Below are positions 20,977-61,963 of a DNA stretch of 64,000 bases, in pieces. Every line of letters begins with the position of its first letter. Within the stretch, counting starts at the first letter, position 1. The translations under genes and the position numbers were made by a program. Origin of the DNA: a virus. Under the pieces are notes generated by a model. It was not told the origin of the DNA. It worked only from the letters and a program-made list of their open reading frames with translations, and searched no databases. The stretch is taken from positions 15,074 to 79,073 of the IMG/VR virus record IMGVR_UViG_3300037852_000046; one strand, given 5' to 3'.

Positions 20977-21004
20977 ATTTGACATAATGGAAAGTATCGA
21001 TGTT
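20977..21004 (-). other. dif: dif-like XerCD site (A/B junction): AACATCGATAC-TTTCCA-TTATGTCAAAT
   Basis: 11-6-11 layout; right arm differs by 1 nt from E. coli XerD arm TTATGTTAAAT; lies in the non-coding junction. Confidence 0.85.
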
Positions 21005-21221
21005 GCACTCAATTCTCATTTAGATTGGAGGCCGTGGAACCTCACTTTGTAAGTTCCACGAAAGCTTTGTAAACTCTGGGAAAGCCGGGGGCGGACGGCG
21101 GACGGGTGGCTAATTTTTGGAAACACGTTTCCCGATCCGCGAATCGAAAAAACATCGATGAAGCCTGAAGCGCAAGCGCGGTGCTAAACTGTCCGCAAAT
21201 TCCAATCCCCCAGAGGACGCC

Positions 21222-22004
21222 ATGGGCAACGGTTATCTGAAAAACGTCTCGCAGGATCCGGTTGCCATCCAGTTCCCGCTGGCTGCAACCCTGAACCGGA
21301 TCGGCGGGCACTCCCGCGTGGCCGTGTACGGGCATCATCCGAGTCCGGTTACTGCTGGCGCGGACATCTGGGAAGGAAGCGGGGCGTACCCGTTTCAGGC
21401 GGCGGCTACCGTTCTGGAGATTCTTTCCGCTTCAGCGAGCGACACGGCAGCAGGCACCGGAGCCAGGACATTCCTGCTGAACGGACTGGACGCGAATTAC
21501 AACGTGATAAGCGAGACGCTTACGTTAAACGGCACGACGCCGGTTCAGACGGTGAACAGCTATCTGCGCGTGAATTCGTTGAACATCGCTACCGCTGGCA
21601 GCGGGCAGGTGAATGCAGGCGACATCACCTTGCGCGTGACGGGGGCAGGAGCTACACAGGCGCTGGCACGGGCGGGGTACGGTTACGCGAAACAGGCTAT
21701 CTACACGGTACCGGCGGGTTTTACGTTACTGGTGACGGATCTGCTGCTCGAATGTGGGGGCACCGGTACGACGAGTGTGATTACGTTCAGTTTCACGCGT
21801 ATCAACGCTTTCACAGGCAATATCATCCAGACGACCAGTGAATACCTGGCGGGGCCTTTGTTCCCGGTCCAACGCAGCGTAATCGTGGGCGCGATGGTAC
21901 AGCAGCGGACGACGCTTACAACGCGCGTCAAGGCGGTGACCGGTACGGTAGACGGGTTCGCGGCTTTCGAGGGTATCCTGATCGACAATACGCAACTGGT
22001 GTAG
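21222..22004 (+). CDS. Beta-rich T/G/A protein, possibly virion-associated (in B, absent at this position in C)
   Basis: 260-aa ORF with GAGG RBS. Confidence 0.6.
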   Translation: MGNGYLKNVSQDPVAIQFPLAATLNRIGGHSRVAVYGHHPSPVTAGADIWEGSGAYPFQAAATVLEILSASASDTAAGTGARTFLLNGLDANYNVISETLTLNGTTPVQTVNSYLRVNSLNIATAGSGQVNAGDITLRVTGAGATQALARAGYGYAKQAIYTVPAGFTLLVTDLLLECGGTGTTSVITFSFTRINAFTGNIIQTTSEYLAGPLFPVQRSVIVGAMVQQRTTLTTRVKAVTGTVDGFAAFEGILIDNTQLV

Positions 22005-22006
22005 CC

Positions 22007-22126
22007 ATGACGAAACAGCCATTCACGCATAAGCCGAACTTGCCGCGCCATCCGAAAGAGAAGCAGAAGCACGAACAGCACGGCGAGAAGGTCCAGAAGC
22101 AGCGCGAACTTGCGAAGCGCAAATGA
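22007..22126 (+). CDS. 39-aa basic protein
   Basis: KQPFTHKP...QHGEKV; homolog at 62138-62263. Confidence 0.65.
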   Translation: MTKQPFTHKPNLPRHPKEKQKHEQHGEKVQKQRELAKRK

Positions 22127-22320
22127 GGAAGTGCAAAACCCCAGGGGCCATGTTTCATTTCATGGTCGGCGCGCCTAATGCGGCGGGTCAGACTGAGATC
22201 CGCGCGGGCGTCACGCTACCCGGGGGGGTCACCGTCGATGAGGCCACGGCCGAAAAACTGGACAGGGCGTTTCACGACGCGATGGAAAGGGTTCTGGCTC
22301 CTTTGTGGAAGGTGAAATAA
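22123..22320 (+). CDS. Hypothetical protein
   Basis: Coupled to terminase start; replaced by a different ORF in C. Confidence 0.5.
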   Translation: MRKCKTPGAMFHFMVGAPNAAGQTEIRAGVTLPGGVTVDEATAEKLDRAFHDAMERVLAPLWKVK

Positions 22321-24323
22321 TGAGCCTGACGAACGCCTCCATGCTCCGGGTGATATCGGAGGACCGGGCACTCGCCAGCGCCATGGTGTTCCCGCACCGG
22401 CATCCGCAGCAAAGTCCCCCGGCGCACGTGAGGATCATGGACGCATGGCGCAGTGTTGACCCGCTGGTGCTCATCGAGATGTTCCGGGAAGGAGGGAAGA
22501 GCACCCTGTCGGAGGAGTTCCTGCTGCTCGAAGCCGGCTTCGGCAACATGGGCTATTGCATCATCATTGGCGAGACATACACCAAGGCGTGCCAGCGACT
22601 GGAGGCGATCAAGTTTGAGGCGGCGACCAACACGAAGCTCCTGAGCCTGTTCGGCAAGATGGCGAAGTGCGCCGGCAGGCTGTGGAACGAACACCAGTTC
22701 GAACTTCCAAACGGCGTGCTTCTGGAAGCGCACGGTTGGGAGGAAGAGTTCCGGGGGTTCAAGTGGCATGACCTGCGGCCTGACCGCGCGTATCTGGACG
22801 ACATCGAGAACCGGGAGCGGGTGAAGGACGCTGCGACGGTGAAGAAGAGCGTGAACAAGCTCTATCTCGAACTGATGCCTGCGATGGACAAGGAGAAGGG
22901 GAAAATCCGCATCACCGGGACGCCACTGGCCGAGGACTGCATGATCACGCGGCTGCGGGCGAACCCCGACTGGACGAGTTTCCAGTTTCCGATCTGCAAC
23001 GGGGAAATTGACGACCCGGCGACCGTTGCCACGTGGCCGGAGCGGTATCCGATGGAGTGGGTCCGGGGGAAGCGCGACCAGATGGAGCGCGCCGGGGAAC
23101 TGAACGGATTCTTGCAGGAGTACATGCTCAAGGCAATCGGCACGGCCGACAAGCCATTCGAGGAGCGCCATTTACATGAGATTGCGATCGATCCTGCACC
23201 TTGGCTGCCGCGTACTCTGGTGGTGGATCCTGCCCGCACTGCTAACGTGGGCAGTTCTGACCGGACGGGCCGAGTGGTTCTTTCTCGGCTCGGAACCCGT
23301 ATCTACGTGCATGCAAGCTCCGGCGAGTACTGGAAGCCAGATGCCATCATCGCCGACGCTTTTGACACATCCCGCAGATTTGATGCCGCAACTGTGGCGA
23401 TAGAGAAGAATTCGCTGGACGAGTGGCTTTTGCAACCGCTGCGCGCGGAGATGCTGCGACGCGGGGAGAGCCTGCCGCTGAAGGCGATTCAGGCACCGCA
23501 GGACCGTTCGAAAGAACAGTTCATCCTCGGGCTGCAACCCTTCTTCGAAGCCGGGGACATCGTGCTCGTCGGAGGACGCGGCGCGCACAGCCAGCTTGTG
23601 GCGGAAATCCTGAACTTTCCGAGCGGCAAGCGGGATATACTGAACGCGCTGGCGTACGCCCAGCGGGTGTTTTCAGGAGTACCGGTGTATGAAGACTTCG
23701 GGGCATGGAATCTCATCGAAGGGTACGAGCCAAGCGCGCGAGATAGCTTGGCTCTGTGTTTTAACGCTTCAGGTTCTGACACTACGGCTGCTCTGGTTTC
23801 TGTTGAAGGTGAGCGCATGGTTGCCGTGGCCGACTGGATCTCGCCTGTTTCTCCTGCTCAAGCTGTACCGGACATCGTGCGCCTTGTCCGCGCGACTTTC
23901 CCTCGAGCGAAGGTGAACGCGTGGCTGCCGGCCGACGTGATGGATCAGGCGGACCGCATGCCGTTGCTCGCCGCGATGCGCGCGGCGAAACTGATGCCGA
24001 TGCGCGGCGCGTACCCCTCACTGGCGCGCGGCGCGCTTAGCCCGCTGATCCGCACGGAGATGAAGGGCAAGCGCCTGTTCCTCGTTGACTCTCAGGCGCG
24101 GCATACGATGAACGCCCTGGCCGGCGGATACGTGTTCCCGATGAGCAAGTCCGGGCAGCAGGGCACGGAACCGGAGCGCGGGCCGCATCGCACGTTGATC
24201 GAAGGGCTGGAAGCGGCGGCGTACGTAATCTGCTCCAGCGCTGGAAATTCCTTGACAGATGAGTTACATTTGGCGTCAAACCCCCATGGGGCTCAATATT
24301 TCACTTCTCTTCCTCGGAGATGA
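22320..24323 (+). CDS. terL: Terminase large subunit
   Basis: FREGGKST Walker A, YLDDIE Walker B, ITGTP, VVDPA RNase H-like nuclease. Confidence 0.9.
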   Translation: MSLTNASMLRVISEDRALASAMVFPHRHPQQSPPAHVRIMDAWRSVDPLVLIEMFREGGKSTLSEEFLLLEAGFGNMGYCIIIGETYTKACQRLEAIKFEAATNTKLLSLFGKMAKCAGRLWNEHQFELPNGVLLEAHGWEEEFRGFKWHDLRPDRAYLDDIENRERVKDAATVKKSVNKLYLELMPAMDKEKGKIRITGTPLAEDCMITRLRANPDWTSFQFPICNGEIDDPATVATWPERYPMEWVRGKRDQMERAGELNGFLQEYMLKAIGTADKPFEERHLHEIAIDPAPWLPRTLVVDPARTANVGSSDRTGRVVLSRLGTRIYVHASSGEYWKPDAIIADAFDTSRRFDAATVAIEKNSLDEWLLQPLRAEMLRRGESLPLKAIQAPQDRSKEQFILGLQPFFEAGDIVLVGGRGAHSQLVAEILNFPSGKRDILNALAYAQRVFSGVPVYEDFGAWNLIEGYEPSARDSLALCFNASGSDTTAALVSVEGERMVAVADWISPVSPAQAVPDIVRLVRATFPRAKVNAWLPADVMDQADRMPLLAAMRAAKLMPMRGAYPSLARGALSPLIRTEMKGKRLFLVDSQARHTMNALAGGYVFPMSKSGQQGTEPERGPHRTLIEGLEAAAYVICSSAGNSLTDELHLASNPHGAQYFTSLPRR

Positions 24324-24325
24324 TC

Positions 24326-61288: not shown

Positions 61289-61427
61289 GGATTAAACCTC
61301 CTCACAAAGATCATGGCGCGGTCCATGGCTTTCATCGGATGAATTGCGCAGTCGCCAGTGCGCATGGTGATTGCCCATATGCCATCACGGCGTTTGAAGA
61401 TGTGGGGCTTCTGCATCCAGATCAGTT

Positions 61428-61616
61428 TCATTGCAGACAGATTCCCGAATAGTCAACGGTTCGACGGATGGTCCAGTGGCGCTTTACCTCCGGGAGCCAC
61501 GGGTCATAGCACACGCACTCGATGTAAGCGTTGGCGAGGAACGTGAGCACCACGTGGGCGGTGGTGCGTTCCAGGATCCTGCGCTCCTGTTCGAGCAGCT
61601 GCGATTCGGATTTCAT
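61428..61616 (-). CDS. att-proximal hypothetical protein
   Basis: GAAGGAG RBS; homolog in A. Confidence 0.7.
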   Translation of the reverse strand: MKSESQLLEQERRILERTTAHVVLTFLANAYIECVCYDPWLPEVKRHWTIRRTVDYSGICLQ

Positions 61617-61645
61617 TTCCAGTCTCCTTCGTTGAGGGTGTCTGA

Positions 61646-61664
61646 ACTATAGCATTTGCTACAC
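61646..61664 (-). promoter_or_regulatory. Extended -10 promoter with operator
   Basis: GCAAATGC-TATAGT on minus strand. Confidence 0.65.
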
Positions 61665-61788
61665 GAAAAGGAAGGTGAATTGCACTATGGATCGCGCGTG
61701 CGTAATAGGGGGAGGCTTTGTTATGTTATAACGTTTCACGAATTGGAATTGGCGAAATGAGCCCCTGTTCGCGCCTCCAAAACACCGA

Positions 61789-61839
61789 TAGTGAGTGCTC
61801 ACTAACAAGTTCCACGAAAGACGGCTGTAAGTTCCACGA
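61789..61839. repeat. Near-palindrome TAGTGAGTGCTCACTA plus two AAGTTCCACGA repeats
   Basis: Syntenic with 20821-20871. Confidence 0.8.
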
Positions 61840-61935
61840 CAGCTTGCGAACAGGGGTTTTGGGCCTGATAACACCTCAATGCATATGCACAGTTCGTAAG
61901 TCGTTGATTCTAAAGGATTGGTGCAATGCAAGGTA

Positions 61936-61963
61936 ATTTGACATAATGGAAGTTATCAACCTT
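61936..61963 (-). other. dif: dif-like XerCD site (B/C junction): AAGGTTGATAA-CTTCCA-TTATGTCAAAT
   Basis: Identical XerD arm, canonical inner ATAA-N6-TTAT dyad, syntenic with the first site. Confidence 0.88.

Follow-up and report, generated by a model that had tools for sequence, protein, structure and literature searches.

Plasmids, filamentous phages, microviruses and tailless double-stranded DNA (dsDNA) phages are all documented to hijack the host recombinases XerC and XerD (Xer). Among the plasmid systems are cer of ColE1 and psi of pSC101, and sites of this type have around 180 bp of accessory sequence beside the XerC arm that is bound by PepA together with ArgR or ArcA. The Xer-exploiting viruses in the literature searched are inoviruses, gokushoviruses and double-jelly-roll phages, which are contrasted with ‘Int-encoding tailed phages’ (PMC12715192, PMC6744903, PMC7062461). 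Here we analysed a 64,000-nt stretch of DNA (the window; positions 15,074 to 79,073 of the IMG/VR virus record IMGVR_UViG_3300037852_000046) in which tailed-phage genes are accompanied by two copies of a site resembling the bacterial chromosomal site dif. A full-text literature search returned no description of Xer exploitation by tailed phages, all cases documented in the literature searched being non-tailed, and the conserved dif mimic in a tailed-phage family is real and appears undescribed; it would extend Xer hijacking to Caudoviricetes.

Each copy is 28 bp long with an 11-6-11 layout (XerC arm, spacer, XerD arm), and the two lie in non-coding DNA in the same orientation, 40,959 bp apart. 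Sequences and positions were as the original prediction had given them:

20977-21004, minus strand: dif-mimic site 1, AACATCGATAC-TTTCCA-TTATGTCAAAT, matching the host dif core at 15 of 16 positions; internal to a low-abundance genome (loop 1, see below)
61936-61963, minus strand: dif-mimic site 2, AAGGTTGATAA-CTTCCA-TTATGTCAAAT, matching the host core GATAA-N6-TTATGTCAAAT at 16 of 16 positions; internal to a high-abundance genome (loop 2)

Sites 1 and 2 have an exact core of 16 nt in common (chance expectation 0.02) and occupy an intergenic position, with the early/replication genes to one side and the packaging genes to the other. Among bacterial genomes the closest relative of these phages resides as a prophage in a Paraburkholderia metagenome-assembled genome (MAG), its large terminase (TerL) being 74% identical. 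This MAG contains dif-type sites on different contigs representing two replicons, ACTGGTGATAA-TTTGTA-TTATGTCAAAT and ATTGGTGATAA-AAAACC-TTATGTCAAAT, and of the 251 genomes sampled from its family 61 have the pattern GATAA-N6-TTATGTCAAAT, at about one copy per replicon; the count includes the unpublished genome G619, without which the claim also holds, and reversed controls gave none. Judged by this correspondence of the XerD arm and of the XerC core GATAA, which is an unusual one, the site is, as had been predicted, a true dif mimic; the likely hosts whose dif it copies are Burkholderia-group bacteria.

For each relative, the 2.2-kb region upstream of terL was scored against the 16-position host dif core irrespective of the spacer. 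Around 25 loci score 15-16 of 16, with 192 background windows reaching 13 at most, and the relatives yielded 24 distinct 28-mers. Among these the information per position is 1.66 bits in the XerD arm and 1.27 bits in the XerC core, both inflated by the use of these positions in the selection, 0.62 bits in the outer XerC arm, which was unscored and is not inflated, and 0.22 bits in the flanks. The outer XerC arm is similar to that of the host dif (ACTGCCGATAA compared with ACTGGTGATAA). The phage spacers are highly variable, with at least 17 forms among the 24 28-mers, and unlike host dif spacers; TT(T) is common to some phage and host spacers but most phage spacers (CTT, TCT, AAT, CAT, TCC, CGC) differ from those of the likely host group. 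A further link to the host comes from genome G761, in which the dif candidates use TTATGTTAA or TTATGTAAA in place of TTATGTCAA; the internal site of its prophage reads TTATGTTAAAT, an XerD-arm variant identical to that of one of the host dif candidates. The site is inverted with respect to terL in L028, L040, L014/15 and L052.

No recombinase that could act on these sites is recognisable in the record, in agreement with the original prediction: the tyrosine and serine recombinase families PF00589 and PF00239 gave no match in six frames over the whole record, and PHROG and Pfam searches of ~44 open reading frames (ORFs) found none. Relatives with 70-74% TerL identity are classical prophages in which a tyrosine integrase occupies the position of the PolA module of the integrase-less clade to which the window belongs (the PolA clade). 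Five of these integrase-bearing relatives (L036, L037, L038, L042 and G761) also have a site scoring 15/16, located 180-340 nt upstream of terL. In one such provirus the site is at 24,765 of 38,570 and the integrase at 38,004-38,477, placing the site deep inside the element and far from its integrase end, and relatives of the integrase clade were seen integrated at least eight times. The site is a family-wide cis element, present both in the integrase-less PolA clade and in integrase-bearing prophages, and it is not an integrase substitute because it is also found inside integrase-bearing relatives integrated elsewhere. An apparent rule of ‘integrase or site, never both’ was overturned by the spacer-agnostic scoring, the sites of the integrase clade having other spacers.

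Integrated members of the PolA clade were found neither in 401 order-level and 401 family-level Burkholderiales genomes nor in a GTDB-wide peptide scan, both of which returned integrase-clade matches only, nor among ~60 viral or metagenome contigs. All viral and metagenome contigs spanning the region have the order primase, orf97, site, (orf260), terL, which is the unintegrated one. An exact-block scan of metagenome contigs recovered seven relatives. In none does host DNA adjoin the site, and the five that span the site region are all in unintegrated order; one additional hit (L083) was a chance match in an unrelated gene and was discarded.

The window derives from one 79,073-bp soil virus contig (G000), which constitutes the whole assembly, contains no host DNA anywhere and is labelled in IMG/VR as a virus with ‘direct terminal repeats’. 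The original prediction had read it as an array of prophage units bounded by the dif-like sites. The contig has the form R-X1-R-X2-R, R being a 154-nt sequence inside terL that is the longest exact match between two collinear but diverged ~40-kb units (67-91% identity), which gives loops of 38,877 bp (loop 1) and 40,125 bp (loop 2, R plus X2). Within the window these parts are as follows:

1-23748, plus strand: part of loop 1, the remainder lying in contig positions 1-15073; loop 1 as a whole is a complete PolA-clade phage genome of 38,877 bp
23749-23902, plus strand: mid-contig copy of R, a 154-nt exact repeat in terL; the likely mis-join point, at which depth steps
23903-63873, plus strand: loop 2 without R, the second and more abundant phage genome (R plus X2, 40,125 bp)
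63874-64000, plus strand: R up to its position 127, which closes the contig; R positions 57-154, with which the contig opens, are outside the window

The contig begins at R position 57 and stops at R position 127, so both of its ends are inside R, and its 71-nt self-overlap, the ‘terminal repeat’, falls entirely within R. Because G405, a clean circular relative from this collection, has a self-overlap of 127 nt, the assembly k was probably 127, and the present contig ends on the first 127 nt of R. When contigs from four soil metagenome runs (Logan contigs, not reads; runs X1 to X4) were placed on window 14000-33900, contig depth rose at R in both run X1 (~8-13 to 45-52) and run X2 (~2-7 to 16-21). 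This step of ~4-5-fold coincides with R, whereas the dif-like site shows none. A low-depth contig of run X1 with zero mismatches (20744-22400) crosses site 1 unbroken, and in runs X3 and X4 the A-side sequence (14000-19900) is present whereas the B side and 20000-23900 are absent, among contigs only. Identity to L041, an IMG/VR contig assembled independently, is 100% over the 3.9 kb downstream of R but ~90% upstream, and L041 is mosaic further on; the partners joined across R are not the same in different contigs. Two additional exact stretches, of 95 and 65 nt, are common to both units just upstream of R, and through these the read pairs of the abundant strain may have misled path resolution. 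Complete relatives measure 38.3-40.3 kb, each of the three that were checked (G403, G405, G406) has one dif-like site, and G405 and G406 close as circles with overlaps of 127 and 117 nt.

As the contig ends lie in R, the depth steps at R, host DNA is lacking and the relatives are of monomer size, the contig is most likely two distinct collinear tailed-phage genomes of unequal abundance joined at R in terL, each with its own internal site. A tandem array would have host DNA at its ends and equal copy number of its units, neither of which we observed. The prophage reading therefore did not hold up. Extending to the contig ends produced no host flanks for an array, ‘unit C’ proved to be just the beginning of the closing repeat, and ‘unit B’ (20977-61963) is not one genome bounded by sites but a splice of the low-depth genome (20977-23748) with the high-depth genome (23903-61963), with one internal site per 38-40 kb. 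The sites do lie one phage genome apart as claimed, but this spacing is uninformative since tandem homologous units repeat every conserved feature ~40 kb apart. As a practical warning, double-length virus records designated complete on the basis of direct terminal repeats can be two strains spliced at a common repeat and mistaken for a prophage array.

Co-occurrence of related strains was also seen elsewhere. IMG/VR sample 3300050821 (L013, L017, L029, L031, L034, L041, L051, L059, L061) holds at least eight distinct strains of the family together, with mosaic identity blocks (100% beside ~90%). This points to a recombining swarm, for which the risk of chimeric contigs is high. Two complete ‘linear’ relatives (G402 and G403), independent assemblies of 38.3 kb, break in the same region, equivalent to ~29800-31100 of the window and between a 594-aa gene and scaffold-like genes; this common break reflects either hypervariability of the stretch or a physical end of the genome.

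What we observed directly is the structure of the contig, the site with its conservation and its match to host dif, and the missing recombinase; on balance we lean towards a role for the site in Xer recombination between the phage's own copies, for multimer resolution or circularisation, as at cer/psi or loxP. Host XerC and XerD would bind the phage site and recombine two copies of it, with the outcome that circular multimers are resolved or terminally redundant DNA is circularised. Recombination with itself is favoured over recombination with a fixed host dif because the arms are conserved, the spacer is free and the site is kept with or without an integrase. Several points weigh against this proposal and the contig structure that accompanies it. 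Phages with a T7-type replisome that package from concatemers have no obvious need for monomer circles, and Xer action at dif-type sites usually requires FtsK or accessory proteins, with no accessory sequence identifiable near the site. The site is degenerate in L016, L082 and L085 and in the prophages of G001, G675 and G531, being lost in the latter three, and the element is therefore dispensable in some relatives. With respect to the splice, contig depth sums all strains sharing a sequence, so that the step could partly reflect other strains with the right-hand sequence, and a paired-end assembler, which would need some support to cross the mid-contig copy of R, did path segment X1 through R into X2, which leaves a real hetero-concatemer a small probability.

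A different use of the same site, and the one nearest to the original prediction, would be that in the integrase-less PolA clade the dif mimic serves as attP, giving lysogeny at the host dif via XerCD; this would not prevent the contig from being a chimera. The lack of any recombinase in the record, the exact host-type XerD arm and XerC core and the existence of Xer-exploiting dsDNA (double-jelly-roll) phages (PMC12715192) are all consistent with this, as is the TTT that site 1 and L012 share with the Paraburkholderia dif spacer on the XerC side, in the manner of a CTX/VGJ-type attP. We nevertheless consider this use unlikely, as no integrated copy was recovered although integrase-clade relatives were found integrated at least eight times, every contig spanning the region has the unintegrated order from primase through site to terL, and the site also lies inside integrase-bearing prophages. 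Spacer variation is free, with most forms mismatching host dif even on the XerC side, and the clade has no repressor and no XafT but replication genes of lytic type. Lysogeny through XerCD as originally proposed is thus not borne out by the integrase-bearing relatives, the search for integrated copies or the spacers. A combined reading, in which an uncultivated Burkholderiaceae tailed-phage family exploits XerCD, the site doubles as attP in the clade that exchanged its integrase module for a PolA replisome and hetero-tandems could really arise, seems to us quite unlikely; if true it would make these the first tailed phages to exploit Xer.

The contig could also be taken at face value as a real tandem. 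Two or three related prophages would then form a hetero-array at a chromosomal dif, or the contig would be a circular heterodimer of 79 kb produced by excision or recombination. Hetero-arrays are common among Xer-exploiting elements, and the assembly path through R and the IMG/VR terminal-repeat label both fit, but such a tandem is highly improbable given a record free of host DNA, contig ends and a 71-nt ‘direct terminal repeat’ inside R, a depth step at R with none at the dif-like site, and partners across R that change between contigs. Moreover all complete relatives are monomer-sized, and 79 kb is twice any of them and presumably exceeds the capsid. It is only a little less improbable that the resemblance to dif is accidental and that the site is a late promoter or is bound by a phage regulator or the terminase. 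The intergenic region does look regulatory, with other conserved blocks and repeats, TTGACA and TGnCATAAT-like strings can be picked out by eye in the site, and a single arm is retained in L055, L082 and L085 (in the last two the XerC arm is kept and the XerD arm is degenerate). Against this a promoter scan found no sigma-70-type promoter using the site, whose inversion relative to terL in several relatives would be intolerable for a promoter. Accident also accounts poorly for a 16/16 match to a host-group-specific dif core with correct dyad and spacing, for an outer XerC arm resembling that of host dif and for the host-matched variant in the G761 prophage. Self-recombination through host XerCD consequently remains the reading towards which we lean.

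The surroundings of the site contain further conserved DNA. Homologous non-coding blocks lie 60-150 nt from the XerC arm, where accessory sequences would be sought at cer/psi-type sites; they are candidate elements only, PepA-, ArgR- or ArcA-type sequences not being recognised among them, and could be accessory sequences, a promoter or pac:

62011-62090, plus strand: conserved non-coding blocks on the XerC-arm side of site 2, identified by alignment; the homologous block is at 21065-21150

On the other side of the site, ~100 nt beyond the XerD arm (20821-21061 and 61780-61850), lie a conserved palindrome (AGTGAGCGCTCACT) and two or three AAGTTCCACGA repeats; kept in close relatives only, they could be operator, pac or origin elements. 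In the metagenome contigs L084 and L086 we found a variant with a 7-nt spacer, AGTTGACATAA-TCAGGAA-TTATCGAGCTT (plus strand), ~110 nt upstream of the conserved block.

One unit encodes a full tailed-phage set (TerL, portal, major head protein, tail fibre, endolysin and holin) as well as a replication set of SNF2-type helicase, PolA, HNH endonuclease, gp2.5-like single-stranded DNA-binding protein (SSB), exonuclease and primase-helicase. Six-frame searches for DUF3653/XafT and for the repressor family Peptidase_S24 gave no match, the sole regulator-like gene found being an XRE-type helix-turn-helix (HTH) protein. No cultured relative was identified (megablast of 25 kb against GenBank phages gave no match and the best capsid matches were of at most 28% identity). 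The genes nearest to the sites and those of the replication operon are:

21222-22004, plus strand: orf260, a conserved phage protein (phrog_8198), between site 1 and terL; absent after site 2
22305-24323, plus strand: large terminase as written (phrog_38, 1.8e-44), its 5' portion derived from loop 1 and its 3' portion from loop 2, with R as the junction
46775-54813, minus strand: leftward replication operon, at the position where relatives carry the integrase module
47954-49393, minus strand: SNF2-type helicase of this operon
49902-52058, minus strand: PolA of this operon
51968-52501, minus strand: HNH endonuclease of this operon
52505-53092, minus strand: gp2.5-like SSB of this operon
53106-54344, minus strand: exonuclease of this operon
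57676-57918, plus strand: XRE-type HTH protein, 80 aa
58514-60583, plus strand: primase-helicase, the last large gene before site 2

The final gene of the leftward operon in both clades encodes a 277-aa protein (46775-47608, minus strand) that adjoins the integrase in the integrase clade and has no family match and a poor Atlas model; the ESM Atlas was uninformative for this protein and for orf260. Small genes for EndoVII/HNH-type endonucleases (phrog_1035/26577, phrog_59) at 25016-25555, 45651-46172 and also 51968-52501 are insertions of ~540 nt in one unit that are missing at the equivalent place in the other, with a related fragment in unit A (14771-14902), and have the look of mobile genes for homing endonucleases. 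A PurD-like ATP-grasp protein (GARS_A 4.5e-10, GARS_C) is encoded in the virion/ejection module of both units (44308-45654 and 3865-5208) and is kept in both clades, including integrated prophages. An ORF that measures 252 aa in one unit and 296 aa in its counterpart contains tandem repeats of 9/12 nt (15365-15730 and 55644-56123), and as the copy numbers of these differ between the units the product is a repeat-length polymorphic protein.

That temperate and lytic-type members of a single tailed-phage family both have the site poses a directly testable question, namely what Xer does for these phages, and arm variants that track the host dif would give a sequence-based host predictor. Compared with the chromosomal dif of the Burkholderia group the phage site has the same XerD arm (TTATGTCAAAT), XerC core (GATAA) and 6-bp spacer length but differs in its nnTCCA-type spacer and in an outer XerC arm that is only partly alike. 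The integrative mobile elements exploiting Xer (IMEX), phages and islands which include CTXphi, VGJphi, TLCphi, gokushoviruses and dif-type double-jelly-roll phages (PMC12715192, PMC6744903, PMC7062461), likewise mimic the host dif, and the PolA clade resembles them in having dif-like XerC and XerD arms around a 6-7-bp spacer and no recombinase of its own. The known elements are however integrated at dif with dif-like junctions, often in arrays and several with XafT/RstR, whereas here neither an integrated copy nor XafT was found, most spacers mismatch the dif of the likely hosts and the same site occurs in integrase-bearing relatives.

With ColE1 cer and pSC101 psi the phage site shares a single XerC-spacer-XerD arrangement on a non-chromosomal replicon without its own recombinase, a spacer free to differ from that of the chromosomal dif and conserved DNA on the XerC-arm side. 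The one site per replicon and the circular form typical of such systems were both observed, the former in G403, G405 and G406 and the latter in G405 and G406. The psi spacer GATCCA ends in CCA, as do the spacers of most phage sites here. Unlike cer and psi, the phage site is on a tailed-phage genome beside packaging genes and its function is proposed from sequence. As a functional analogue we propose the loxP/Cre system of P1, in which a recombination site near the packaging region of a tailed-phage genome circularises terminally redundant DNA and resolves dimers; P1 encodes its own recombinase, whereas the phage family described here would borrow the XerCD of its host.

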